Notes: generated by a model from the sequence alone, not told the origin. DNA of 32,000 nucleotides from Geobacter metallireducens GS-15 (GCF_000012925.1 NC_007517.1:780001-812000); one strand, 5' to 3'; shown: positions 6,612 through 29,203, numbered from the stretch's first letter. Translations and numbers: made by a program.

Positions 6612-7508
6612 ATGCCCTATCCCGACACGGCCAATCTCCCCTTTAACGCGACGGTCATCGCTGACGGTTTCACTCCCGAACCTCCCGATTCGGGGGGAGG
6701 TGCCGGGCCGGGCGTCTGGGCCGTTCTCCGCGGAAACTCACTTGTGGTGGAAGAGCGGAGGGGAACCCTCGCGCTTCCCGAGGGTGAGCGGCCGCAATGG
6801 CTTTCCGCCGGGCGGGAGACAATCACTATCGGCCGCTGGCACGGTCGTCCCCTCAGGGTCGCCCGGATGTCGGCGCAGGACCCGCTTCCCTCCCCGTTCG
6901 TGGCCGAACCCTTCAACGCAACGGGTGAGCGTCTTGATGACGCGACTCTCACCATCGGCGGCATGGCCCAGCAGATCCTCCATTGGGAACGCGACAGCCG
7001 CTTCTGCGCCCGCTGCGGCGCTCCCCAGGAGCGCTTGCCGGGCACCTGGGGCAAGCGCTGCCCTCCATGCGGCGTCGAGCATTTTCCCCACATCCACCCC
7101 TGCGCCATCGTCCTCGTGAAGCGGGGGGACGAGTTCCTCCTCACACGCAAGCCCGACTGGGCTCCGGGGCGCTACGGGCTCGTGGCGGGATTTCTCGATT
7201 TCGGCGAATCCCTGGAGGAGTGCGCCCGTCGCGAGGTGCGGGAGGAAACCGGGCTGGAGATCGGCGCCATCCGCTACGTGGGGAGCCAGTGCTGGCCCTT
7301 TCCGAGCCAGCTCATGGCGGGGTTCGTGGCCGAGTACGCCGGGGGCGAGATATGCGTCGACCATGCCGAGTTGGAGGATGCCCGCTGGTTCAGCCCTGAC
7401 GCCATGCCGGAGTCGATCCCCCCCCGGCGGAGCATCGCCCGGTGGATCATCGATCGCTTCGCGATCGGGGACCGGGGACCGGGGACCAGGGGCCGGGAAA
7501 ACCCATAA
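6612..7508 (+). CDS. nudC: NADH pyrophosphatase (NUDIX hydrolase with zinc ribbon)
   Basis: Zinc ribbon is CARCGAPQ...CPPCG. Nudix box is GFLDFGESLEECARREVREETG, with a downstream SQPWPFP-like QCWPFPSQLM. GGAGG lies 7 nt upstream of ATG 6612. The last 13 codons read through the (GGGGACC)n repeat. Confidence 0.88.
   Translation: MPYPDTANLPFNATVIADGFTPEPPDSGGGAGPGVWAVLRGNSLVVEERRGTLALPEGERPQWLSAGRETITIGRWHGRPLRVARMSAQDPLPSPFVAEPFNATGERLDDATLTIGGMAQQILHWERDSRFCARCGAPQERLPGTWGKRCPPCGVEHFPHIHPCAIVLVKRGDEFLLTRKPDWAPGRYGLVAGFLDFGESLEECARREVREETGLEIGAIRYVGSQCWPFPSQLMAGFVAEYAGGEICVDHAELEDARWFSPDAMPESIPPRRSIARWIIDRFAIGDRGPGTRGRENP
7467..7497 (+). repeat. G-rich heptad repeat GGGG-ACC-GGGG-ACC-GGGG-ACCA-GGGG-CC-GGG followed by an A-run (G-quadruplex-type motif)
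   Basis: Read directly from the sequence. A second copy lies at 15841-15869. Confidence 0.8.
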
Positions 7509-7534
7509 TACCATTCAGATTAAGGAGGATTGCC

Positions 7535-7975
7535 GTGTCATTTTTTTCAGTTCTCTGCCGTTTGGCCGTCGCCCTCTGGGTGGGAGGCGCCGCCCTGTTC
7601 ACCTTCGTGCTCACCCCCACCATCTTCAGAACCGAAACCCGCGACGTGGCGGGACGCATCGTCGGCTACCTCTTCCCCGGCTACTTCCGCTGGGGGCTGG
7701 CCTGTGGCGCCGTGGCCCTCCTGGCGCTTCTGCTCGCGCGGGGAAAGAACTGGATGCCGGCGGCGGTCCTCCTGGTCGTGATGTTGGCAGTCACCGCGTT
7801 CCAGGCCTTCCATGTGGAGCCGAAGGCCGCTCTTATCAAACAGCAGATTCCTTCCTTCGAAACCACCCCCAAGGATCACCCCATGCGCCGGGAGTTCTCC
7901 AAACTCCACGGCATCTCCGCCGTCTGTAATCTATCGGTCATCGCCGGCGGCGTGGTGCTTATAATCTTGTTGTAA
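7535..7975 (+). CDS. DUF4149 (TMEM205-like) membrane protein
   Basis: GTG at 7535 lies 6 nt after AAGGAGG. The protein SFFSVLCRLAVALWVGGAALFTFVLTPTIF... has four hydrophobic helices and a C-terminal FSKLHGISAVCNL block. Its 3' end is duplicated at 11122-11215. Confidence 0.75.
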   Translation: MSFFSVLCRLAVALWVGGAALFTFVLTPTIFRTETRDVAGRIVGYLFPGYFRWGLACGAVALLALLLARGKNWMPAAVLLVVMLAVTAFQAFHVEPKAALIKQQIPSFETTPKDHPMRREFSKLHGISAVCNLSVIAGGVVLIILL

Positions 7976-8087: not shown

Positions 8088-8256
8088 AAATAGCGCTACG
8101 TGGTGTTTTTGATTGATAATTTCGTTGAATGATTTGCGTTGTTGAGACCTTTGTTTTTCTAAGCTGTTATGAACTTGCGCCAAAAAAGTCACTATGTATG
8201 GCCATTGCCGGACACCGCCAGAAATCGAGAAACCATGGAAAAAAGGGGACACAATG

Positions 8257-8409
8257 ATGAACGGGAAATGGTTGGTGATGATCGGCATGGTTGCCATGAC
8301 CTGCGCTCTTCTCGCAGGGTGTGGTGGTGGCGGTAGCGGCAGTGGGGGAGGGGGCGGCGGAGGAGGCGGCGGCGTAACAACCGGAACAGTTACCGGGACG
8401 GCCAAGTAG
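8257..8409 (+). CDS. Mini-lipoprotein A (50 aa precursor, predicted 29-aa mature lipopeptide, Gly-rich)
   Basis: MNGKWLVMIGMVAMTCALLAG|CGGGGSGSG(G)10VTTGTVTGTAK has a classic lipobox LAG|C. It is paralogous to the 42-aa ORF at 11563. ATG 8254 is an alternative start. The longer track ORF from 8194 is unsupported. Confidence 0.65.
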   Translation: MNGKWLVMIGMVAMTCALLAGCGGGGSGSGGGGGGGGGGVTTGTVTGTAK

Positions 8410-8431
8410 GGAACAGGAAAGGATAAGGTAC

Positions 8432-10255
8432 ATGAAAAAGAAACTGCTCTCTTTTGCATCTGCCGCCGCCCTTCTGTCGACCGCTGTTGCCCCGGCGGCC
8501 TTTGCGGCAACAGCGCCATTAGCGGACGGCACCTATACGATCACGGTCAGCAAGTTCAATTCCAATGGTACGCTCTCAACGGTGTCGTCGAATTCTGCCG
8601 TTGCGACGGGGGGAAAGCTCGATTTCACCCTCCCGTCCATGCCGACCAGGAACGATGCCAATTTTCTCTTCTTCGAGTTGAAAGGTGTCAACGGAACGGT
8701 TGTGCGGCAGGGATTCGCTCCGGCACCGCCGGCGAGTGCCACCAACAAGCTCGGCATAAACGAGATGTCCGACAAGCAGGCGCAGGTAGTGAAGCAAGCG
8801 GCAGCCCTGGCAGGGAGCGATGATCCGATCCTGATGTCATACCTTCTGGTCATGCTCCGCTCTCCCGATATCAATGATGATGATATCTCCATGATTGCCC
8901 AGATGGGTAAGGCGGGAATTTTGGGTAGCGGTGGTTTTGAAGGTTTTTTGACATCCCCGTCAGGTGGAAACACAACCACCAATCAGTTGAAATCTCTCAA
9001 GGATTGCCTCATCTACAACAGCGATGGGACCCAAAAAACCCTCCGGAGCTTCACGGAAGGGTACTATGACGCTGTCAACATGATGACAGCGGACGAGCAG
9101 AAGGAAATGCAGAGGGCCGGGGGGCTGATGGGTGAAATATTCATCGATGCCGCCACCTGTGCCGGGATCAAGCCCGACCTGGTTCTTGCCGCCCACAATG
9201 CCGCAGGTGTGGCCGTTTATGACGACGAGAGCATGGCAGCCCTAACGGCCCATAATCCCAGCTTTGCCAGCGCCATGGAAAGTGCCATGACCACCTTCCA
9301 CATGAGGATTTCCGCATCGAACCTTGCCGGCGAATATTCCAAGGCGCTGACTGCCCTTGGTGCCTCCGGCAGCCAGGTAACCGATTTCCTCAATGCCAGC
9401 CGGAGCCTCATGACAAGCTTCGAGAGCCTTGACGCCCAGTATGCCGGGTTCTACGCGGATCCGGAGAGCTACGCGGCATCCAAGGGAACGACAGTGGACA
9501 TTGTCCAGACAGAACTCCAGGATGCCTTCCAGGCAGCATTCACTACTTTCCAGGGGGCCATTGCTTCCAAGGCTACCGATATCAGTGCAATGAAAACGGG
9601 TGTCCTGACGATGCTGCCGCCAGGGTCGACGTTACCCAATACCTTCGGGACCTATACGATGTTTGCCGCCCCGGACCAGGCGACGTGTAAAGCCGCCGGC
9701 GGCACGTGGGGAGGGGATTGTGTCGCCAACTGGCCCATTCCCCAGACGGTCATGGTGACGTGGCTGGCAGGCATTCTTGGCAATGGCGGCGACTTTGCCT
9801 ATACGCGGGACACGACGCCGCTTCAGTCTTTCGCCGAGGGGTTCTGGGACGGCGAGTGCACCATAGCCGCGCCGGATCAGGCCGCCTGCACCATGAATGG
9901 CGGCATGTGGACCCAGGCCAGCACCTGCGTAGTTATGACGCAGAAGGGGATGTGCGAGGGGGTAGGCACCTGGAGCGCCCGGCACACGTTCTCATCGGGC
10001 AACGCCGCATTCAATGCCTTCCAGGGGATCCAGGAAGATATCGCGATTCTGGAGATGAAGCGGCAGGCGGAACGGGAGACAATAGCAGCGAGCGAGAAAG
10101 AAGAACAATATAACGAAATGCAGGCCAAAAAGAACTTTGTCGATGGCTTGGCAACGCTCGCAGGCAAAATAACCGGCAGGACCAACGCCACAACCCCTCT
10201 CACCGAGGCGCTGAAGCAGGCGATCATCGCCCTGATGCGGCAACCGAACATGTAG
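8432..10255 (+). CDS. Secreted 607-aa protein of unknown family (beta N-domain, Ala-rich helical core, Cys-loop region); module copy A
   Basis: AGGAAAGGA RBS is present. Signal peptide is MKKKLLSFASAAALLSTAVAPAAFA|AT. It is a full-length paralogue of 11718-13682. No recognisable catalytic motif. Confidence 0.85.
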   Translation: MKKKLLSFASAAALLSTAVAPAAFAATAPLADGTYTITVSKFNSNGTLSTVSSNSAVATGGKLDFTLPSMPTRNDANFLFFELKGVNGTVVRQGFAPAPPASATNKLGINEMSDKQAQVVKQAAALAGSDDPILMSYLLVMLRSPDINDDDISMIAQMGKAGILGSGGFEGFLTSPSGGNTTTNQLKSLKDCLIYNSDGTQKTLRSFTEGYYDAVNMMTADEQKEMQRAGGLMGEIFIDAATCAGIKPDLVLAAHNAAGVAVYDDESMAALTAHNPSFASAMESAMTTFHMRISASNLAGEYSKALTALGASGSQVTDFLNASRSLMTSFESLDAQYAGFYADPESYAASKGTTVDIVQTELQDAFQAAFTTFQGAIASKATDISAMKTGVLTMLPPGSTLPNTFGTYTMFAAPDQATCKAAGGTWGGDCVANWPIPQTVMVTWLAGILGNGGDFAYTRDTTPLQSFAEGFWDGECTIAAPDQAACTMNGGMWTQASTCVVMTQKGMCEGVGTWSARHTFSSGNAAFNAFQGIQEDIAILEMKRQAERETIAASEKEEQYNEMQAKKNFVDGLATLAGKITGRTNATTPLTEALKQAIIALMRQPNM

Positions 10256-10268
10256 GCAACCGGCGGGT

Positions 10269-10290
10269 GCGGGCGGCATGATCCGCCCGC
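10269..10290 (+). terminator. Perfect GC hairpin between the large gene A and the TonB-like gene (possible attenuator or partial terminator)
   Basis: GCGGGCGG-catgat-CCGCCCGC followed by gcttctttacc. The first in-frame ATG (10278) sits in the loop. Confidence 0.4.
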
Positions 10291-10301
10291 GCTTCTTTAC
10301 C

Positions 10302-11039
10302 ATGGACACGATTCAGCGTTTCATTATAGCTTCTCTGGCGCTCCACGGGGTGATTCTCGCCGCCGTTTCCTCGTATGATTCCATGACAGCCAGGCGCCAC
10401 AGGGTTCAGACCGCCAACTGGGTTGTGGACGTTATTACGGACATACGCAGCGAGCAGGCGGGGCCCGATAACAGCGCGGCAGTTCAGGACCAGGAAGTTC
10501 TGCCATCCCAGGATGAACCGCAGTCGCAGCCGCCCCCTGAATCTGCTGCCCCTGCGGAACTCCCCCCTGACGCCCCCCCCGCGCCTGTCCCTCCCGCCAG
10601 CCAGGCCGATCCATCAGTCGGCTCAACTGGAACCGGCGGGCAGGCGAGCGCCCCTGTCAATACCGTTGCCCTGACCGGCGCCTTTCTCAGCCAAGGGTTT
10701 CGCAACACCATGAATGCCCAGGCCATAGTCGCGCAGCTGGGGAACTACCGGAGGGTTTCGGGTCTGGCTCTCAAGGGGATGGTCTCGCAGGCCCTTCCCG
10801 CCGAAGAGCGTCAGCGGCCGGACGAGGTTCGGGGTACCGTTCTGGTAACCTTCCAGGACGGCGCTGTCGCCTCCCTTTCGGTGGAGTCGGAGGACGAGCA
10901 GTTCCGCTCCCTCCTCCGTGACCGGATCGACTGGAGCCTCCTCCCGGCGCCGCGCCAGTTTTCCCTCCCCATTTCCCGTGTCGCCTGTACGGTCAGCGTC
11001 TCCAACGGCAAAATCAGGGTCGGGGTCGGTCCGATCTGA
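10302..11039 (+). CDS. TonB-like protein (N-terminal membrane anchor, Pro-rich spacer, C-terminal TonB_C-like domain)
   Basis: MDTIQRFIIASLALHGVILAAV is the anchor. QPPPESAAPAELPPDAPPAPVPP is the spacer. GTVLVTFQDGAVASLSVES...LLPAP is the tail. The start at 10302 is preferred because 10278 lies in the hairpin loop. No exbB/exbD genes are in the window. Confidence 0.6.
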   Translation: MDTIQRFIIASLALHGVILAAVSSYDSMTARRHRVQTANWVVDVITDIRSEQAGPDNSAAVQDQEVLPSQDEPQSQPPPESAAPAELPPDAPPAPVPPASQADPSVGSTGTGGQASAPVNTVALTGAFLSQGFRNTMNAQAIVAQLGNYRRVSGLALKGMVSQALPAEERQRPDEVRGTVLVTFQDGAVASLSVESEDEQFRSLLRDRIDWSLLPAPRQFSLPISRVACTVSVSNGKIRVGVGPI

Positions 11040-11056
11040 TTTTTCCTTATCACCTC

Positions 11057-11215
11057 ATGGACTCCACGGCCGACACTCTCGGCCTCCCGGTGTCGCGCCC
11101 CCTTGCCCTTGCCAACAAGCGCCCCAAGGATCACCTCATGCGCCGGGAGTTTTCCATGATCCGCCGCATGCAACCTGTCGGTCATCGTTGGCGGGGTGGC
11201 GTTGGTTATTCTACG
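11057..11215 (+). pseudogene. Duplication-junction scar: 5' fragment of the DUF2156 gene fused to a 3' fragment of the DUF4149 gene
   Basis: 11057-11120 aligns with 13857-13920 (MDSTADTLGLPVSRPLALANK versus MDPMTDIPGFPAARPLFLADK). 11122-11215 aligns with 7867-7975 (PKDHLMRREFS versus PKDHPMRREFS) and is then frameshifted. Confidence 0.8.
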
Positions 11216-11247
11216 GCAGCGATCTCTATCCGCTCCGTTTATTTTAC

Positions 11248-11283
11248 GGCCCATCCGGCATCCGCTGGGGGGCCTTTTGTTTT
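11248..11283 (+). terminator. Duplicated copy of the DUF4149 terminator
   Basis: GGCCC...GGGCC stem followed by TTTTGTTTTG, in a position equivalent to 8007-8040. Confidence 0.35.
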
Positions 11284-11562
11284 GAATGCACAGGGTCAGT
11301 GCAGTCTGGCGCTATTCATTAAGCAGTGAACGGTGTTTTGTTTTTTGTGCGGCTTGATAACGTTTGGTAACTCCTGATTGCGGTTGGTTATTTCGTTTCT
11401 GGTTTTGTACGGCGACAAGTGCGTTAACTGGAGCTGTTGTGTGTGTTTGTAACAATTTTTTTCTAAAGTTTTGCCAATATATGCCGAATCAAAATCTACA
11501 GTCATCAACTTGGAACGAAGACAACAGTTGCAGTTCAATAGCGAAAGAGGAGGTACGGAACG

Positions 11563-11691
11563 ATGAACAAGAAATGGTTGGTTATGATCAGCATGGTTGT
11601 CATGGCCTGCGCTCTTATAGCCGGGTGTGGTGGCAGTAGTGGCGGCTCGGGCGGCGGAACGACGGGAACGATTTCAGGGACTGCCAAGTAA
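11563..11691 (+). CDS. Mini-lipoprotein B (42 aa precursor, predicted 21-aa mature lipopeptide)
   Basis: Below the ORF-track size cut-off. AGAGGAGG lies 8 nt upstream. ATG 11563 to TAA 11689-11691 encodes MNKKWLVMISMVVMACALIAG|CGGSSGGSGGGTTGTISGTAK. It has the same lipobox and C-terminal motif as copy A. Confidence 0.7.
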   Translation: MNKKWLVMISMVVMACALIAGCGGSSGGSGGGTTGTISGTAK

Positions 11692-11717
11692 CGTCGCGCA
11701 CAAGGAGGGAAAAAACA

Positions 11718-13682
11718 GTGAAAAGAAATCTCATGACGTCCATTGGTGCCGCCGCCCTTGCTACTGCCCTGGTCGGGCCAGCCTCGGCCGCGCCAGCCGA
11801 CCCGTTGGCAGCCAACACTCAGTATGCCGTTTTGGTCAAAAAGATGAACAGCGACGGCTCTACGACGCTGGTTGATTCGGCTAACGCCACCACCGATGCC
11901 GATGGCAAACTCACCTTCAACTTCACCACAATGCCCACCAGGCCCGATACCAATTTCATTGTCTTCGAGGTGAAGGATACCAACAGTACCGTCCGGCAGG
12001 GAATCGCGCCGGCTCCCCCGGAAAACGACCCTAACCTTCTTGGCATCAACAACCTCTCCACAGTCCAGACGAAGGCGCTCCTGGCCGCGGCTGCCGAAGC
12101 CGGCAGTGACGACCCGATCATGATGGCCTATGCCCTGACGCTGCTCCGTTCTCCCAATGCGACGGCGGATGACACCACCATCATTGGCAAGCTGGGCAAG
12201 GGGGCAATCATTGGGGGATTCGAGGCGTTCCTCACGGACCCGGCCAAGGGGAACGTGAGCACCGAGGGATTGGCGAAGCTCAAAGAGTGCCTGGTATACA
12301 ACGAAACCGAGGGGGCCAAAACTCTCCGTGACTTCACCGAAAGCTTTTACAATGCCAACGCGGCGTCCAGCGATGCCGCTGCCGACCAAGAGATGCAGAA
12401 GGCCGGCGGGTTCATGGCCGAGATGTTCATGGATGCGGCCAAATGCGCCAATATCGACCTGGGGCTCATCAATGCGGCCCACAATGCGGCGGGAGACGCC
12501 GCCGAGGCGATTGAGGATCCTCCCGGCACTCCCATCATGACCGGCCTGAGTTCGGCGGTTCAAATTGCCATTGAGCAGGCCATGTCCACCTTCCACAAGA
12601 GGATTGCCATCGTCAAGGTGTCCGGCGAGTATAGCAAGGCCCTCGCCGCCCTGAATGCTTCCGGTGCCGAAAGAGACAGGTTCCTTGCCGCCGTTAATGA
12701 CGTGGCAACGGCCATGGGAGCGGTGGAATCACAATATGCCGGCTTCTATGTGGACCCTCAGGCCTATGCGGATGCCAATTACCCCGGGGCGGGAGATGCA
12801 AATGCGCGTATTGCCGCGGCGCAGGCGGACATAGACGCCGCATACCAGACTGTCTGGAACAATTTCATGACGGCCATGGCTTCCACCGATGATGACATAA
12901 CCGCCATGAAGGCGAAGGTGGTTGCCGGCTTCGGTTTTTCACCGGGCCAGTTGCCGTCTGATTTCGGGAAATTCATGAACTCGGAAAGTCAGAGCATCAA
13001 CTGGCCCATTCCCCAGACGGTCATGGTTTCATGGCTGGGAGACCTGATGGGGGGGGGTGGGACGTTCAGCTACCTGAACAACCGGGACGATACCCCCATT
13101 CCCAACTGGGTAACGTGGATGGGAAGTTGCACCAAGGCCGCTGATCTGGCTACGGCGTGTGCGAGTTTTGGCATGACTTGGGGCGGAAACAACTGCGTGA
13201 CGCCCATACCTGACCAGCTAACCTGCGAACAACGCTCTAATCTTTTTTGGTCGGGAAGCAGTTGCCTGGTGAGCACCGACGCGCTAGGGGCGAGTGCCTG
13301 CCAGGGCGGATCGTACTACGACGCAGCCAGTGGCAAATGCGTCGTGATGGGACAAATGCAGGACACGTGTGGTATCGCTGGAGGGACCTGGACCACCGCT
13401 CGCACCGACTACTCGTCAATGCCGGCCCAGATGGGTGCATTCCGCGATCTGCTCGCCTTGCAGGAAGACATCAATATCATTGATTTTGAACGGATGAGCA
13501 TCTGGCAGGGGGCGGGGGCAAACCCGACCGGAGCGGAAGAAGCTGCCGCAAAGCTTGCATTCGAGCAAAACCTGGCCTCCATCAAGAATAACATTGCCGC
13601 CACCACCAACGGCACCACGTCCATAACCGCCGAGCAGAAGGCAGCCATCGTCAAGCTGATCATGCAGCCCAGTATGGACTGA
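11718..13682 (+). CDS. Secreted 654-aa paralogue of the 8432-10255 protein; module copy B
   Basis: GTG start lies 8 nt after GGAGGG. Signal peptide is MKRNLMTSIGAAALATALVGPASA|AP. It is collinear with copy A and has an expanded Cys-loop region (8 Cys versus 6 in that region). Confidence 0.85.
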   Translation: MKRNLMTSIGAAALATALVGPASAAPADPLAANTQYAVLVKKMNSDGSTTLVDSANATTDADGKLTFNFTTMPTRPDTNFIVFEVKDTNSTVRQGIAPAPPENDPNLLGINNLSTVQTKALLAAAAEAGSDDPIMMAYALTLLRSPNATADDTTIIGKLGKGAIIGGFEAFLTDPAKGNVSTEGLAKLKECLVYNETEGAKTLRDFTESFYNANAASSDAAADQEMQKAGGFMAEMFMDAAKCANIDLGLINAAHNAAGDAAEAIEDPPGTPIMTGLSSAVQIAIEQAMSTFHKRIAIVKVSGEYSKALAALNASGAERDRFLAAVNDVATAMGAVESQYAGFYVDPQAYADANYPGAGDANARIAAAQADIDAAYQTVWNNFMTAMASTDDDITAMKAKVVAGFGFSPGQLPSDFGKFMNSESQSINWPIPQTVMVSWLGDLMGGGGTFSYLNNRDDTPIPNWVTWMGSCTKAADLATACASFGMTWGGNNCVTPIPDQLTCEQRSNLFWSGSSCLVSTDALGASACQGGSYYDAASGKCVVMGQMQDTCGIAGGTWTTARTDYSSMPAQMGAFRDLLALQEDINIIDFERMSIWQGAGANPTGAEEAAAKLAFEQNLASIKNNIAATTNGTTSITAEQKAAIVKLIMQPSMD

Positions 13683-13688
13683 AAGAGC

Positions 13689-13729
13689 GCGGGGGACGGC
13701 TACCACCGTCCCCCGCAAAATATATTTTC
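13689..13729 (+). terminator. Intrinsic terminator after the large gene B
   Basis: GCGGGGGACG-gctaccac-CGTCCCCCGC is a 10-bp stem followed by AAAATATATTTTCG. Confidence 0.7.
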
Positions 13730-13739
13730 GTCTCAGTGC

Positions 13740-13785
13740 CAGCGTCTCCAACGGCAATATCCGGGTCGGGGTCGGCCCGAGCTGA
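13740..13785 (+). pseudogene. 46-bp remnant of the 3' end of a second TonB-like gene
   Basis: CAGCGTCTCCAACGGCAATATCCGGGTCGGGGTCGGCCCGAGCTGA aligns with 10994-11039 (CAGCGTCTCCAACGGCAAAATCAGGGTCGGGGTCGGTCCGATCTGA), including the stop codon. Confidence 0.8.
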
Positions 13786-13856
13786 TTTCTTGCCTCACCG
13801 CCTCAGGGGAAATTTGTCCGCCGCTCTCCTCTCCGCGTCTGCTATACTCTTTCCCC

Positions 13857-14747
13857 ATGGACCCCATGACCGACATCCCCGGCTTTCCGGCGGCGCGCCC
13901 CCTTTTCCTCGCCGACAAGCCCTTCTTCGCCGCCGTTTTTGCCGAACTCCAGCCCCGGGTCTCGGAGCTTACCTTTGCCAATCTCTACCTCTTCCGGGAG
14001 GCCCATGACTATCGGCTCACCCGGGTGGGTGACTCCCCCGTGGTGCTCGGAAAGGGGTACGACGGCGAGGAGTACTTCCTCCCTCCCCTCGGTGGAGATG
14101 TGGCTGGTGCCCTCCGGGTGCTCCTTGATGCAGGGATGACCCTCTACGGGGCCGACGAGCCCTTTGTGTCCCGGTACCTGGCCGTCGGGGGGGTGGCCGT
14201 GGAGGAAGACCGGGATGCCTTTGACTACCTCCACCTCCGGCAGGCACTGGCGGAACTCCCCGGCAACCGCTTCCACAAAAAGAAAAACCGGATCAACTAT
14301 TTCACCGCTCGGCATTCCTTCAGCGTGGTTCTTTACGGCGAGGCCCACCGCGATGGCTGCCTGGCGCTCCTCGACGAGTGGCGCCGGGTCCGCAACGGTA
14401 TCGACAGCCCTTCCCTGGAACTGGAGACGAAGGCAGGGGCGGAGGCCCTCATGCTCGCGGACCGCCTCGGCCTCGAAGGGGTGGTGGTGCTCGTGGAGGG
14501 AGGGGTGGCTGCCTTCGCCCTGGGGGAGCGGCTCAATCGCGACACGTCGGTCTGCCATTTCGAGAAGAACGATCCGTTCATGGAAGGGGTTTCCCAACTG
14601 GTGGACCGGGAGTTCAACCGGCTCCTCTTCACCGACTGCACCTGGACGAACCGCGAGCAGGACCTGGGGGAACCGGGGCTGCGGGCGGCGAAGCTCTCCT
14701 ACCATCCGGATGAACTGGTGAAGAAGTATCGGGCACGCAGGGTGTGA
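13857..14747 (+). CDS. DUF2156 protein (lysyl-phosphatidylglycerol synthase C-terminal-like / GNAT-like fold)
   Basis: Contains FANLYLFR, FHKKKNRINYF and NREQDLGEPGLRAAKLSYHP blocks typical of DUF2156. Confidence 0.7.
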   Translation: MDPMTDIPGFPAARPLFLADKPFFAAVFAELQPRVSELTFANLYLFREAHDYRLTRVGDSPVVLGKGYDGEEYFLPPLGGDVAGALRVLLDAGMTLYGADEPFVSRYLAVGGVAVEEDRDAFDYLHLRQALAELPGNRFHKKKNRINYFTARHSFSVVLYGEAHRDGCLALLDEWRRVRNGIDSPSLELETKAGAEALMLADRLGLEGVVVLVEGGVAAFALGERLNRDTSVCHFEKNDPFMEGVSQLVDREFNRLLFTDCTWTNREQDLGEPGLRAAKLSYHPDELVKKYRARRV

Positions 14748-16480: not shown

Positions 16481-18787
<2,307 letters not shown>

Positions 18788-21188: not shown

Positions 21189-22346
21189 ATGAACATTCAT
21201 GAGTACCAGGCAAAGGAGATCCTGAGCTCGTACAGCATCCCGGTCCCGCGGGGGCGGGTGGCACTCACGTCCGACCAGGTGGAGCGGGCTGCCAAGGAGA
21301 TGGGGGGGCGCTGCGTCATCAAGGCCCAGATCTACGCCGGTGGCCGCGGCAAGGCCGGCGGGGTGAAGCTGGTCCATCACCCGGAGCAGGCTCAGGATTA
21401 CGGCAAGGAGCTCTTTGGCAAGCGTCTCGTGACTCCCCAGACCGGCCCCGAGGGGCTGAAGGTCCGCCGCATCCTCGTGGAGGAGGCGGTGGAGATCGCC
21501 CGGGAGTTCTACCTCTCCATCACTCTGGACCGGGCAACCTCCCGTTATTGCCTCATCGCCTCCGCCGAAGGGGGGGTAGACATTGAGGAAGTGGCCCAGA
21601 AGTCCCCCGAGAAGATCCACGTCCTCACCATCGACCCCTACACGGGCCTTCGCCCCTACCTGGCCCGCAAGATCGCCCTGGCCCTGGGGCTCACGGGGAG
21701 CCTCTGCGAGGACTGCGTGGAGCTGATGCTGAACCTCTACAAGGTCGTGCTCGACAAGGACTGCTCCCTGGTGGAGATCAACCCCCTGGTGGTGACCCGG
21801 GCCGGCTGGCTCATGGCCATGGACGCCAAGATCAACTTCGACGACAACGCCGTCTTCCGGCACCGGGAATACCCCGACATGATGGATTACTCCCAGCTGG
21901 ACACCCTGGAGATCAATGCCGGCAAGTACGATCTCTCCTACATCAAGCTCTCCGGCAACATCGGCTGCATGGTGAACGGCGCCGGCCTGGCCATGGCCAC
22001 CCTCGACGTGCTGAAGGAATACGGCGGCGAGCCGGCCAACTTCCTGGACGTGGGGGGCGGCGCCACCCGCGAGAAGGTGGCCGAGGCCTTCAAGATCATC
22101 CTGGAGGATGCGGACGTGAAGGGGGTCTTTGTCAACATCTTCGGCGGGATCATGCGCTGCGACGTCATCGCCCAAGGGATCATCGAGGCGGCAAGCGAGG
22201 TCCACTGCACCCTTCCCATCGTGGTCCGGATGGACGGGAGCAAGGTGCTGGAGGGGAAGCAACTCTTGGTGGATTCGGGGCTCAACGTCCAGACCGCCGA
22301 CTCCCTCGGTGAGGGGGCGGAGCGGATCGTGCAGATGCTGGGCTGA
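21189..22346 (+). CDS. sucC: Succinyl-CoA synthetase (ADP-forming) beta subunit
   Basis: Contains [12 protein letters not shown]..., the ATP-grasp region and [17 protein letters not shown]...[28 protein letters not shown] is present. Confidence 0.95.
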
Positions 22347-22381
22347 CGGCCATTACATTACAGACAACACGGAGATCATCA

Positions 22382-23257
22382 ATGTCCATACTCATCAACA
22401 AGGATTCAAAGATAGTCGTCCAGGGAATCACGGGCCGCAGCGGCCTCTTCCACACCCAGCAGTGCCGGGACTATGGCTCCAGGATCGTGGCCGGCGTCAC
22501 CCCGGGCAAGGGGGGGATCCACATCGAGGGGATTCCGGTCTTCAATACGGTGGAGGAGGCGGTGCGGTACACCGGCGCCAATGTCTCCATGATTTTCGTT
22601 CCACCCCCTGGGGCCGCCGACGCCATCCTTGAGGCGGCCGACGCGGGGGTCGACCTGGCGGTCTGCATCACCGAAGGGATCCCGGTGCGCGACATGGTGC
22701 CGGTGAAGCGGATTCTCCAGGGGAGCAAGACCCGCCTCGTGGGGCCCAACTGCCCCGGCGTCATCACCCCGGGCGAGTGCAAGGTGGGGATCATGCCCGG
22801 CTACATCCACAAGCCCGGCAAGATCGGCGTCGTCTCCCGCAGCGGCACCCTCACCTACGAGGCGGTGAAGCAGATCACCGAGGCGGGGCTCGGCCAGTCC
22901 ACCTGTGTCGGCATCGGCGGCGACCCCATCATCGGCATGCAGTTCATCGATGTCCTGAAGCTTTTCAACGAGGACAAGCAAACCGAGGCGGTCTTCATGA
23001 TCGGCGAGATCGGCGGGAGCGCCGAAGAGGACGCCGCCGAGTGGATCCGGGAGAACATGAAGAAGCCCGTGGCCGCCTTCATCGCCGGGGTCACCGCCCC
23101 CCCGGGAAAGCGGATGGGCCATGCCGGCGCCATCATCACCGGCGGGAAGGGAAAGGCGGAGGACAAGATTCGCACCCTGGGCGAGTGCGGCGTGGTCGTG
23201 GCCCCGAGCCCCACGAAAATGGGGGCGGCCATGCTGGAGGCCCTTGGCAAGAAGTAA
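22382..23257 (+). CDS. sucD: Succinyl-CoA synthetase alpha subunit
   Basis: Contains [47 protein letters not shown] and the phosphohistidine loop MGHAGAII. Confidence 0.95.
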
Positions 23258-26451: not shown

Positions 26452-26526
26452 TAACTTTTCATGCATGTGGACCATACGCTGATTTTTTTGCCGATGGTCC
26501 AATACAATACCGATTGTGAGAGAAGA

Positions 26527-27240
26527 ATGAGATCCTTCCTGATAATGCTGTGTTTCATGGCGGTCATGCTTGGCAGTGTACCCTTTGTTGGGTCCGTCCA
26601 TGCCATGTCGGCTTTTTCGCGTAAATACGGCATGAAATGTGATTCATGCCATCGCCAGAGGATTCCGGAACTGAACGATTTCGGTGTGGCGTTTTACAAG
26701 AACGGTTTCATGCTGCCTGGACAGAATGGCTCAGCGAAGAAAGATACGGCCGCTTCTGCCGCTGTACCCCCAGTGACCGGCAAGGAGAGTGACAGCGCCG
26801 GCGAAGGTGCCCCCAAGGCGTCGGTTAAAGGCCCCGGAGAGGGCAAAAATGAAGAGGAGGAAGAGGAGGAGGAGGAAGAACCGCCACCTCCGCCCACGGT
26901 TGTCTATCGTCTGCCGTCACGGGACGGGAGCGTCTACTTCACCGATAATCCTATCCGGCAGGAAAGTGTTCCGGTTTTGAGAAAAAAGCAAGGTAGCCGT
27001 CCTGCGCCGTCACGTGCCGGTGTAATCCATCCAGCAAAACATCAAGGACGAGTTGCCGCCAAACAGCGAATGCTTTCCAGCGTTTCTGCGGCAGTCTCCC
27101 AAGAGCATTTCCGAAGTTATGAGGAGTGCATGGAGCAATCATTGCTTAAAGAACCGCCTCCCATTTCTGCCGAAGAAACAATGAACCGTCTGACTGCGGC
27201 TGAGAAACGCTGTTCGGCATATCAGTCAATAAAACGGTAG
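26527..27240 (+). CDS. Secreted protein with a single CXXCH haem-binding motif, poly-Glu/poly-Pro linker and DUF4124-like segment
   Basis: Signal peptide is MRSFLIMLCFMAVMLGSVPFVGSVHA|MS. CDSCH lies at 26638-26652. E10-P5 lies around 26851-26895. VVYRLPSRDGSVYFTDNP resembles the DUF4124 core. Two further Cys residues are near the C-terminus. Confidence 0.65.
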   Translation: MRSFLIMLCFMAVMLGSVPFVGSVHAMSAFSRKYGMKCDSCHRQRIPELNDFGVAFYKNGFMLPGQNGSAKKDTAASAAVPPVTGKESDSAGEGAPKASVKGPGEGKNEEEEEEEEEEPPPPPTVVYRLPSRDGSVYFTDNPIRQESVPVLRKKQGSRPAPSRAGVIHPAKHQGRVAAKQRMLSSVSAAVSQEHFRSYEECMEQSLLKEPPPISAEETMNRLTAAEKRCSAYQSIKR

Positions 27241-27267
27241 CCGTTGCGAAGGAATAGTGGGACTGTT

Positions 27268-27666
27268 ATGACCAGCCGTTTGAACCAGAAAGGGTATACC
27301 CTCGTTGAGATGCTGATTGCCATGTTTCTTCTGGTGGTTGGCTTTCTGTCGGTTTTTCTGGTGCTCTGGGCCTCTACAACGTCGGGGCGTTTCAGTCGAG
27401 ACATGACGACCGCGGCAAACCTTGGCCAGGATATGCTGGAGCGGATCGGTACCATGAAGTATGACGATTTGCCTGAAACAAGCGGATTTCAGAACTATCC
27501 GGAACCGTTCGGCGACAAGAGCCTGGCTGCCGCTGCCTTCGAGGCGCGACAGTGGCGGATATCTTCGGCCGGCAGCATGAAGATCGTGACCGCCAGGATA
27601 TCGTGGATCAAAAACGGCGCCAGGAAGACAAGGGATTTCACCATGGTCAGGCGGAAAGAGTACTAG
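27268..27666 (+). CDS. pilV: Type IV pilus minor pilin, PilV-like
   Basis: The prepilin leader and cleavage/methylation motif MTSRLNQKG|YTLVEMLIAMFLLVVG is present. The protein is 132 aa. Confidence 0.6.
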   Translation: MTSRLNQKGYTLVEMLIAMFLLVVGFLSVFLVLWASTTSGRFSRDMTTAANLGQDMLERIGTMKYDDLPETSGFQNYPEPFGDKSLAAAAFEARQWRISSAGSMKIVTARISWIKNGARKTRDFTMVRRKEY

Positions 27667-27669
27667 ACA

Positions 27670-28707
27670 ATGACGTGTGAGGCGTTGACGGCGCAGCCAA
27701 GGTCTATGGGGGGGTACACGCTTGTCGAGGTGCTTGTGGTCATCGTTATTCTGGCGGTGATCAGTGCCGGCTTGTCCACTGTGTTCATCACCGGGCAGAA
27801 AGAGTATGGCGTGCGTGAGGCTACCATCAGGATGCAGCAGCAGGCACGGCAGGCCATGAACGAGATGGAGCGGGAACTTAAAAACACCGGCTACGGCCTC
27901 ATGGATATGGGCGACCTGACTGTCAAAGTTTACAAGTCTAGCGGGGCCATTCCCTCCTGGCAGGTGGTCGAGGCGTCGGATGGCGGCACTGAGCCCGACT
28001 CGATCAAGGTCCTGTACAGCGGGGCCGAGAGCGACGTGGGATATGATTATATCGTTTCCGTGGATCACCCTACAAGTTCAGCGCTCATGCTGGTCAGCGC
28101 CGTTGGCTCCGTCCCCCCCTCGCGCACGCTCAATGACGATTTCATAAAAGGAGACCTGTTTCTCGTCTACGATCCGAGCGATCCGGGGAAGCCGGCTACG
28201 CGCTTTCAGGCGACGAATGTTACAGCTCCCGACAAGATCCATCACAACCCCGGAGGGTATAATCCTTCAGGAGGAACTCTCGACGTCGCGTACGGCGTTG
28301 GAAGCAAGGTTCTCAACCTGAGGCTGATGCAGGCGAAAAGTGTGTCATATTCAGTGGATGCCCGGCAGAACCTGATCAAGACCGTCGAAGACCTCAGCCT
28401 GATTGACCCTCCGGCAAATCAACGCACGAAAATAGTAGCATCCGGCGTCGAGGACCTTCAGATACGGTATCAGTTTAAGGACGGCACGTGGAAGAATGCC
28501 GGCGATCCCGGTTTCGTTGCGAAGGACCTTCGAGCGATTCAGGTGAGCATCATTGTCAGGACCGAAAAGCCCGATCCCCGCTATCCTGGGCAATCTCTTC
28601 AACTGACGGGCTCCTATGGCAATGGCGGAGTGAAAAATTCGGCAGGTTACCGCAGGATGGCCATGAGCACGATCATCTATGTGCGCAATCTTGGGTTCCG
28701 GGACTAG
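27670..28707 (+). CDS. pilW: Type IV pilus minor pilin / assembly protein, PilW-like
   Basis: Contains the motif ..RSMGG|YTLVEVLVVIVILAVISAG. The protein is 345 aa. Gene order matches pilV-W-X-Y1. Confidence 0.55.
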   Translation: MTCEALTAQPRSMGGYTLVEVLVVIVILAVISAGLSTVFITGQKEYGVREATIRMQQQARQAMNEMERELKNTGYGLMDMGDLTVKVYKSSGAIPSWQVVEASDGGTEPDSIKVLYSGAESDVGYDYIVSVDHPTSSALMLVSAVGSVPPSRTLNDDFIKGDLFLVYDPSDPGKPATRFQATNVTAPDKIHHNPGGYNPSGGTLDVAYGVGSKVLNLRLMQAKSVSYSVDARQNLIKTVEDLSLIDPPANQRTKIVASGVEDLQIRYQFKDGTWKNAGDPGFVAKDLRAIQVSIIVRTEKPDPRYPGQSLQLTGSYGNGGVKNSAGYRRMAMSTIIYVRNLGFRD

Positions 28708-28711
28708 TTGC

Positions 28712-29203
28712 ATGGGGGGACGGGTGCTGAATGAGCGGGGGGCTGCGCTGGTCGTGGCGATCATACTGCTGATGGTCCTCACCATCCTGATGACGGTACT
28801 GAATCATGCGACCCTGTATGAAATGATTTCAAGCCGCACTTATCAGGAATCCCAGCGGGCTTTCTACGCAGCCGAGACAGGGGTCCGCGATGCCCTGGAA
28901 TGGCTCGGAAAGCAGAATTCCCCGCCGGAAACCACCATCACCCCCCCCGGCTGGTTTTATGACGGGACCGTGGCGCGCAAGGACGCCACGTGGTGCTCTT
29001 GGCAGACAGTGGAGGATATCCATTTCCGGTACTATATCGAACACCTGAAAGACGCCCCGAATTACAACATGAGTAGCACCATCGGCAAGAACTCCAAGGG
29101 GCCGAAGAGCGTCCAGCACTACTACCGCATAACGGTCGACGGGGCCAACAGCACCTATCTGGTGCACAGGCAGGTCCAGGTCGTGACGACCGCCTACTGG
29201 TGA
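28712..29203 (+). CDS. pilX: PilX-like minor pilin (PilX_N-type N-terminus)
   Basis: MGGRVLNERGAALVVAIILLMVLTILMTVL matches the ERGxALxVALxxLxVLT PilX N-terminal pattern. ATG 28712 lies just after the pilW stop. Confidence 0.6.
   Translation: MGGRVLNERGAALVVAIILLMVLTILMTVLNHATLYEMISSRTYQESQRAFYAAETGVRDALEWLGKQNSPPETTITPPGWFYDGTVARKDATWCSWQTVEDIHFRYYIEHLKDAPNYNMSSTIGKNSKGPKSVQHYYRITVDGANSTYLVHRQVQVVTTAYW

Follow-up and report, generated by a model that had tools for sequence, protein, structure and literature searches.

A 32,000-nucleotide stretch of Geobacter metallireducens GS-15 DNA (NC_007517.1:780001-812000, referred to here as the window) contains, at positions 8254 to 13785, two adjacent copies (A and B) of a module in which a very small lipoprotein gene precedes a gene for a large exported protein. 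We tentatively interpret this module as a lipoprotein split into two genes, which may be a cargo of type II secretion. As far as their sequences and those of fused relatives indicate, the micro-lipoprotein and the large exported protein are two halves of one unit. An original prediction, made from the sequence of the window, had described the region as a cell-envelope module of an uncharacterised family. This description holds, as no confident profile or structure match was obtained and the gene set is conserved well beyond this genome. Three features described below had not been noticed in that prediction: the conserved C-terminal tail motif of the mini-lipoprotein, the existence of fused single-gene forms, and the link to type II secretion.

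The pairing of the two genes was followed across loci from a GTDB species genome scan (29) and a JGI metagenome scan (58). These scans yielded 61 distinct large genes preceded by sufficient sequence, to which targeted look-ups added further ones. In every one of these a small open reading frame (ORF) lies on the same strand just 5' of the large gene; the 61 distinct pairs come from Geobacter/Geomonas and from deltaproteobacterial, Nitrospirae and gammaproteobacterial records. This arrangement is kept even in the most divergent of the sampled branches (loci L095, L096 and L097), and the gap between the two ORFs is about 10-45 nucleotides wherever the start of the large gene is unambiguous. Recurrence of the pair in 61 distinct loci and four lineage groups is more than chance, and the pair is obligate.

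The small product starts with a signal peptide and its lipobox Cys, continues with a Gly/Ser/Thr spacer of low complexity and varying length, and ends in a conserved tail that follows the pattern G-x-[IV]-[STQ]-G-[ST]-[AGV]-x-stop. Gly occupies position -4 of this tail in 61/61 pairs, and Ser or Thr occupies position -3 in 60/61. Mature lipopeptides comprise 20-30 residues, with 29 amino acids in copy A and 21 in copy B. Three variants do not have the lipobox Cys (L008, about 2600-2740; L011, about 8650-8775; L090, upstream of 265; …LWSIVATGGGG…), and in these a transmembrane helix may take the place of the lipid as anchor. As all three keep the hydrophobic helix along with the Gly/Ser spacer and tail, the conserved elements of the small product are a membrane anchor and a terminal motif. 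Attachment to peptidoglycan in the manner of Braun lipoprotein (Lpp) was considered and rejected, because the last residue is K in just 12 of the 61 products, and N, S, E and D are also common.

The connection between the two genes is most directly seen in fused forms. One of these, P0089 (584 amino acids), occurs in two independent assemblies (L035 and L036), and a second, P0181, is 56% identical to it. Both proteins begin with a signal peptide and a lipobox (LCVTVGC and LCLMAGC), followed by a linker of about 20 residues and the motif TG[ST][IL]SGTAK, which runs straight into the mature N-terminus of the large protein; the second signal peptide is absent. Judging from these sequences, the fused form cannot be derived from the two-gene form by a simple frameshift or readthrough. 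Such fused forms show lipopeptide and large protein to be two halves of one functional lipoprotein. Furthermore, the fusion places the tail directly before the first strand of the N-terminal domain, which suggests that in the split form the tail docks in trans at this domain, presumably by strand addition. A more specific proposal, in which the tail motif forms strand A of a CarboxypepD_reg-type domain, found no sequence support, with weak FlgD_ig and Big matches only. The L035 contig, which carries a fused form, also encodes a DUF1554 protein at 8272-9141; this family is associated with Leptospira-like organisms.

Within the window, the module and its boundaries are arranged as follows:

7867-7975, plus strand: 3' end of a DUF4149 gene (full ORF 7442-7975; Pfam DUF4149 E 5.6e-22), left boundary of the duplicated segment.
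8254-8409, plus strand: mini-lipoprotein A, with signal peptide, lipobox LLAGC, Gly/Ser-rich spacer and C-terminal motif TGTVTGTAK.
8432-10255, plus strand: large exported protein A, 607 amino acids (ABB30958.1 / WP_004514621.1).
10278-11039, plus strand: TonB/TolA-like partner, 253 amino acids (ABB30959.1).
11053-11213, plus strand: tandem-duplication junction, consisting of an LPG_synthase_C 5' fragment and a DUF4149 3' fragment.
11563-11691, plus strand: mini-lipoprotein B, 42 amino acids (AFR42804.1), with lipobox LIAGC, spacer and motif TGTISGTAK.
11718-13682, plus strand: large exported protein B, 654 amino acids, GTG start (ABB30961.1 / WP_004514624.1), paralog of A.
13711-13808, plus strand: decayed 3' remnant of a second TonB/TolA-like gene downstream of copy B (tblastn, blastn).

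The two same-strand pairs of a mini-lipoprotein and a signal-peptide-bearing protein are thereby confirmed, with gaps of 22 nucleotides in copy A and 26 in copy B and with large proteins of 607 and 654 amino acids. The product of small ORF A (MMNGKW...LLAGC...) reads MMNGKWLVMIGMVAMTCALLAGC followed by a Gly-rich run and then VTTGTVTGTAK; that of small ORF B carries ALIAGCGGSSGGSGGGTTGTISGTAK. Each large protein has a signal peptide at its N-terminus, and a purine-rich, Shine-Dalgarno-like sequence lies 5' of all four small and large ORFs. Large protein A is 100% identical to GeomeDRAFT_3241 (ABB30958.1, WP_004514621.1). Small ORF A, in its start versions 8254 and 8257, was not found in a collection of 15 billion proteins; it may be unannotated or annotated with another start (e.g. 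8194). Small ORF B is listed as AFR42804.1, 'lipoprotein, putative', outside the original ABB numbering, which suggests that its annotation was added later.

The large proteins give no match beyond noise in Pfam, NCBIfam or PADLOC. Their family was recovered as 24 clusters among 5.8 billion proteins in a word-index search, and as 170 representatives at E <= 0.001 (104 at E <= 1e-30) among 1.84 billion proteins in an exhaustive profile search; the family is real but rare. A confident AlphaFold2 model of large protein A, built from a 24-sequence alignment, reached a mean predicted local distance difference test score (pLDDT) of 85.4 and a predicted template modelling (TM) score of 0.81. The model comprises a six-strand beta N-domain (residues 33-112), a helical core (114-392), a mixed Cys-containing insertion (407-515) and a helical tail (525-602). 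A Foldseek search with this model revealed no fold match in the PDB (best E 0.2, TM score below 0.15), and in BFVD the N-domain alone was matched, by Ig-like folds.

A signal peptide of type I is a conserved feature of the large-protein family; the mature protein has about 550-620 residues. Its N-terminus is conserved as ALT-x-G-xx-Y-T, and its extreme C-terminus as L-x-Q-P-[SN]-[ML]-x-stop with an invariant Pro (10237-10252 in A, 13665-13679 in B). This C-terminus could be a recognition tag, for instance for the PDZ domain of the GspC-like partner described below. The Cys-rich region is a lineage-variable insertion, and 21 of 61 homologs do not contain any Cys; in both Geobacter copies the Cys count is even (8 in A and 10 in B, where the insertion is longer), in keeping with export. 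The Cys-rich insertions hold repeated loops of the form C-x(3-9)-G-x-[WY]-x(2-9)-C, namely CKAAGGTWGGDC (window 9686-9721) and CTMNGGMWTQASTC (9887-9928) in A and CQGGSYYDAASGKC (13299-13340) in B, and their copy number varies among A, B and other homologs.

These results bear on several statements of the original prediction. That no named domain is recognisable was borne out in the Pfam, NCBIfam and PADLOC profiles and in the PDB and BFVD structures, and the proposed outline of a beta N-domain, helical core, Cys region and helical tail is supported by the model. The two large proteins indeed align end to end (BLASTP E 2e-122). In contrast, the estimate that roughly half of their residues are identical was too high, with 38% identity overall and 43% over aligned MAFFT columns, and the label of a Cys-loop protein overstated a variable insertion.

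The gene that follows the large gene was surveyed in 67 loci with at least 900 nucleotides of downstream sequence. It encodes a TonB/TolA-like protein, represented by the 253-amino-acid Geobacter family, in 34/67 loci and a short GspC-like protein in 14/67, with no partner present in 19/67. The gene trio is conserved outside this genome but not universal, its third member being of two kinds or absent. In the 253-amino-acid protein, a transmembrane helix with S19-x3-H23 is followed by a Pro-rich spacer and then by a structured C-terminal domain. A ten-sequence alignment of the family shows no variation at S19 and H23, and SxxxH is found in the hydrophobic membrane helix of 30/30 distinct TonB/TolA-like partners, as well as in L097. 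This motif defines the class and mediates the coupling of TonB and TolA to ExbBD and TolQR. The spacer (residues about 36-129) is rich in Pro, Glu, Ala and Gln and disordered (pLDDT below 50), and the C-terminal domain is modelled by AlphaFold2 as a long helix followed by a beta-beta-alpha-beta-beta arrangement (pLDDT above 90). Its best Foldseek matches are FusB (probability 0.98), TolA-III of V. cholerae and P. aeruginosa (0.90-0.92; TM score on target 0.47-0.54), HasB and the C-terminal domains of TonB, with E-values of just 0.03-0.5.

On the basis of the SxxxH helix, the Pro-rich disordered spacer and the TolA/TonB-type fold matches, the label 'TonB-like' is right at class level, and the protein stands outside the curated families. 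The helix motif and the fold matches strengthen this part of the original prediction. The 253-amino-acid protein and ten members of its family, which is small (8 clusters in the word-index search), gave no Pfam match at E <= 1, including T2SSB (GspB), and no GspB or OutB was among the top 50 Foldseek matches. The NCBIfam TonB model scored 14 bits (E 0.033) against a cut-off of 265, and a PDB sequence profile search with the family returned nothing relevant. The partner shares its SxxxH membrane helix and its Pro-rich spacer with TonB, TolA, HasB and FusB, whose C-terminal domains are also the best fold matches of its own, and differs from them by the long helix before the domain and by the beta-beta-alpha-beta-beta topology. 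Unlike TonB and TolA, it is encoded with the lipopeptide/large-protein pair and not with exbBD, tolQR or a TonB-dependent receptor. None of these (MotA_ExbB and ExbD for exbBD) was detected with Pfam among 20 other long ORFs of the window, in agreement with the earlier remark that no exbBD genes are nearby, and around the genome-scan loci no further gene family was shared between lineages. The suggestion of an uptake complex consequently gains no specific support.

In gammaproteobacterial cassettes, the position of the TonB/TolA-like gene is occupied by a gene for a GspC-like protein of about 200 amino acids. The eight short partners tested all match the HR part of T2SSC (positions about 80-140; 19-28 bits, cut-off 27) and PDZ (18-27 bits), at or just under the Pfam thresholds; the N-terminal part of the T2SSC profile remains unmatched. 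The L030 partner and the GspC of the L003 operon itself are, in contrast to these short proteins, full-length GspC (60 and 50 bits). The HR domain of GspC binds the N0 domain of the secretin, and its PDZ domain is implicated in substrate specificity. Most loci with a short GspC-like gene do not have gspD, gspE or gspF within the fetched flanks.

Several cassettes are placed at type II secretion operons, and this placement is repeated. In the Nitrospirae loci L003 and L007 the gene order is small, large, insertion, TonB/TolA-like, gspC, gspD, gspE, gspF; in L081 it is small, large, GspC-like (the operon's own GspC-type protein), gspD, gspE, gspF. In L027, gspE/F-like and GspC-like genes lie divergently upstream of the cassette, in L026 gspD/E/F lie 4.6 kb downstream of it, and in L030 the cassette is followed by the full-length GspC gene and then the contig end. 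The insertion in L003 (9941-11492) and L007, an IS200-type transposase with a toxin-antitoxin, comprises three genes (a 162-amino-acid protein, a 103-amino-acid protein and an IS200/IS605-type Y1 transposase) and splits the large gene from the TonB/TolA-like gene.

PulA of Klebsiella and SslE of E. coli are lipoprotein cargo encoded beside type II secretion operons, and MtrC and OmcA of Shewanella are surface lipoproteins that depend on type II secretion. The Caulobacter lipoprotein cargo gene elpS likewise adjoins a gspC-N operon (PMC2996285), in the same manner as several cassettes lie directly upstream of gspC-D-E-F. As in PulA, SslE and ElpS, the module would provide a large exported protein with a lipid anchor by way of an N-terminal lipobox and a flexible linker, and the fused forms P0089 and P0181 share this single-chain architecture exactly. 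The large protein has no sequence or fold similarity to PulA, SslE, ElpS, MtrC or OmcA. Moreover, PulA, SslE and ElpS bear their own lipobox, whereas in the 61 loci described here the anchor is a separate product and the signal peptide of the cargo is of type I. Further differences are that many cassettes, including those of the window, are not found beside type II secretion genes, and that the putative cargo is accompanied by a dedicated TonB/TolA-like or additional GspC-like gene. ExeB/GspB is a precedent for a TonB-like protein that serves a type II secretion system.

We postulate the following assembly. The small gene product would be a substrate of Sec and signal peptidase II, its mature form consisting of a lipidated Cys, a flexible Gly/Ser spacer of 10-25 residues and a C-terminal motif of 7-8 residues. 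The large product, with its Ig-like N-domain and helical body, would be exported separately, and the terminal motif of the lipopeptide would dock as an extra beta strand beside its mature N-terminus, thus tethering the large protein by a flexible leash to a membrane. This is probably the outer membrane, because Gly at position +2 of the lipobox routes there by E. coli rules, which are assumed for these phyla. The third gene product, where present, would act as an adaptor that is anchored in the inner membrane and spans the periplasm, either as a TonB/TolA-class protein coupled to the proton motive force or as a short GspC-like protein with HR and PDZ parts. Such an adaptor may couple the tethered protein to an outer-membrane machine, for which the type II secretion secretin is the likeliest candidate; the pair would then be a dedicated type II secretion cargo retained at the surface. 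The rationale for such coupling is that TonB C-terminal domains and PDZ domains both capture short terminal strands through beta augmentation, and that GspC HR domains bind secretin N0. In G. metallireducens the cassette was duplicated in tandem, with strong divergence of the large proteins and loss of the TonB/TolA-like gene from the second copy. Taken with all its parts, that is, a lipopeptide strand that completes the N-terminal beta sandwich and a dedicated TonB/TolA-like or GspC-like adaptor that energises or delivers the complex at the secretin, this detailed scheme is doubtful, and distinctly less probable than the split lipoprotein as such.

A number of observations weigh against a split lipoprotein that is secreted as cargo. 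Type II secretion core genes are absent from the window and occur within the fetched flanks of just four independent loci, and the third gene is missing in 19/67 loci. The TonB/TolA fold match is weak (E 0.03-0.5), with no Pfam TonB_C or TolA match, and for a TonB/TolA-class partner a role in the periplasm, akin to Tol-Pal, or in uptake is no less natural than one in secretion. For the docking step, mutual information between the tail and the columns of the large protein places the N-domain in 29 of the top 100 pairs compared to a background of 20%, a mild enrichment with phylogeny uncontrolled, and Pfam searches with six constructs of motif plus N-domain gave weak Ig-like matches only (FlgD_ig, Big; E 1e-4 to 0.1). 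Among the invariant residues of the large protein, no catalytic, cofactor or ligand-binding motif is evident.

The most serious rival, which we nevertheless regard as rather unlikely, is a periplasmic trans-envelope tether similar to Tol-Pal. Here the large protein would not reach the surface but be held by the lipopeptide at the inner face of the outer membrane, and the TonB/TolA-like protein, driven by ExbBD or TolQR from genes elsewhere, would pull on or remodel it in the service of envelope maintenance, uptake or signalling. The layout resembles that of TolA-TolB-Pal, in which a transducer of the inner membrane with SxxxH is combined with a large protein of the periplasm and a lipoprotein of the outer membrane. 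SxxxH in 30/30 partners, the TolA/TonB-type C-terminal fold, the TonB/TolA-like gene as the commonest third gene (34/67) and the window's want of type II secretion genes all agree with this arrangement. It leaves unexplained, however, the GspC-like HR and PDZ protein of gammaproteobacterial cassettes and the repeated position at the head of gsp operons. Furthermore, no homology to TolB or Pal was found with Pfam, NCBIfam or Foldseek against the PDB, the lipoprotein is a peptide of 20-30 residues that does not contain a folded domain, and tolQR is not adjacent; the scanned window ORFs include no TonB-dependent receptor, exbBD or tolQR, and there is no recurrent neighbour family.

It is considerably less likely that the small ORF acts independently of the large protein, be it as a stand-alone lipoprotein of the LptM or pilotin kind or as an upstream ORF with a regulatory or translational-coupling function. 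The short gaps of about 10-45 nucleotides are compatible with coupling, and the small ORFs show weak matches to generic small-lipoprotein models, among them LptM (12-16 bits) and NF058595, the 'lipo-invert putative C-terminal anchoring domain' (14-27 bits; 12 small ORFs or fusions at 14.5-26.8 bits, over profile positions of about 50-100 only). Every one of these family matches is below its cut-off. Membership in NF058595 was rejected, since the 37-bit cut-off is never reached and the match reflects a generic lipoprotein signal with a Gly/Ser spacer. The conservation of signal peptide, lipobox and, above all, tail at the peptide level in four lineage groups indicates a functional peptide, and the in-frame fusions, which keep the motif and dispense with a second signal peptide, argue that it is part of the large protein.

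Least probable of all is a freely secreted soluble enzyme or toxin, such as a helical pore-former or polymer degrader with loosely related helpers as neighbours: the Sec signal peptide, the big helical body, the proximity of some loci to type II secretion genes and very weak HBL/NheA matches to the same segment in both paralogs (Bacillus_HBL E 0.12, NheA E 0.16, over 35 residues) are in its favour, but these matches are far below threshold, Foldseek against the PDB returned no ClyA-family or enzyme fold (best TM score below 0.15), the invariant residues make no recognisable catalytic motif, and the strict lipopeptide pairing together with the fused lipoprotein forms points to membrane tethering. 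A ClyA/HBL/Nhe-type pore-forming toxin was rejected accordingly.

The history of the duplication can be read from its remnants. The 3' end of the DUF4149 gene (7867-7955) matches 11122-11199 at 73% nucleotide identity (blastn), with a tblastn match of DUF4149 at 11114-11213, and 11053-11100 matches 13853-13900, the 5' end of the downstream LPG_synthase_C gene (blastn). As the end of DUF4149 and the start of LPG_synthase_C recur there, ORF 11057-11329 is a chimeric junction remnant, a frameshifted pseudo-ORF of about 20 first LPG_synthase_C codons (compare 13857 onwards) and about 30 last DUF4149 codons (compare 7867-7972). The 3' end of the TonB-like gene (10994-11060) matches 13740-13808 at 84% (blastn), and tblastn places the remnant after copy B at 13711-13779 (SVSNGNIRVGVGP). 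The duplication is thus a tandem segmental one with its junction still visible, and the remnants define the original unit as small ORF, large ORF and TonB-like gene, of which copy B lost most of the third. In G. hydrogenophilus (L005) both copies are present, together with a 79-amino-acid remnant of the third gene at the same position.

The small ORFs A and B are 83% identical at the nucleotide level (8253-8340 and 11559-11646). Non-coding remnants and small ORFs thus share 73-84% of their nucleotides, compared to about 64% in the best-aligning stretch of the large genes (8639-9215 and 11931-12501), and in a neighbour-joining tree B branches below a clade of A and a Geomonas-like homolog. The lower identity of the large genes and the tree position of B suggest either an unusually rapid divergence of the large paralogs once they had been duplicated, or the replacement of one copy by recombination.

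Searches of the module for other functional elements and for earlier descriptions yielded little. No RNA elements or tRNAs were found near it, promoter and terminator scans gave background level only, and a role in anti-phage defence was rejected for want of a PADLOC match. The sucCD genes, Gmet_0729-0730 (PMC2700814), are located in the window at 21189-23257, and by counting from them the module genes are probably Gmet_0716-0719. A literature search retrieved no mention of the module accessions, of the presumed locus tags Gmet_0713-0720, or of 'lipo-invert'.

Elsewhere in the window, an IS110-family transposase (DEDD_Tnp_IS110 and Transposase_20) is encoded at 16552-17736, 2.9 kb 3' of the module. 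Three consecutive minor pilin- or pseudopilin-like genes (N-terminal methylation motif, PilW-like, PilX_N) are found at 27244-29203, about 13 kb 3' of it. A 259-amino-acid protein (26461-27240) starts with FSRKYGMKCDSCH...PELNDFGVAFYKNGFML and continues into a Glu/Pro-rich low-complexity region with no barrel. Its N-terminus is closely similar to that of a 439-amino-acid protein in the gammaproteobacterial locus L001 (6983-8302; FARQTGLACMACH...PELTPFGRTFKLNGYTL), whose gene lies 1.5 kb upstream of the cassette and which resembles a Cyc2-type fused monoheme cytochrome-porin.

The kinds of component described here, namely a lipoprotein anchor, a TonB/TolA-class transducer, a GspC-like protein and a type II secretion cargo, are already known. 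With no curated family match, no counterpart in the PDB or BFVD and no literature mention found, the large-protein family, the split anchor and the alternation of TonB/TolA-like and GspC-like partners appear to be undescribed. Even if the complex were merely a periplasmic tether, it would still represent a clean new domain family with a defined set of partners. A split lipoprotein, if true, would constitute a new principle of envelope assembly, in which a micro-protein contributes the lipid anchor in trans, and would be another example of an easily missed ORF of 40-50 codons that encodes an obligate subunit. The exchange of partners at the same position offers a handle on the recognition of individual cargo by type II secretion systems, and on whether TonB/TolA-type transducers can serve secretins; an adaptor acting at the secretin would couple TonB/TolA-type energy transduction with type II secretion of one particular cargo. 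Members of the family are found in Geobacter/Geomonas, in sediment Nitrospirae and in sulfur-oxidising Gammaproteobacteria. Since these organisms exchange electrons or sulfur with solids, a protein tethered at their surface would be a plausible, if hypothetical, player in mineral contact.

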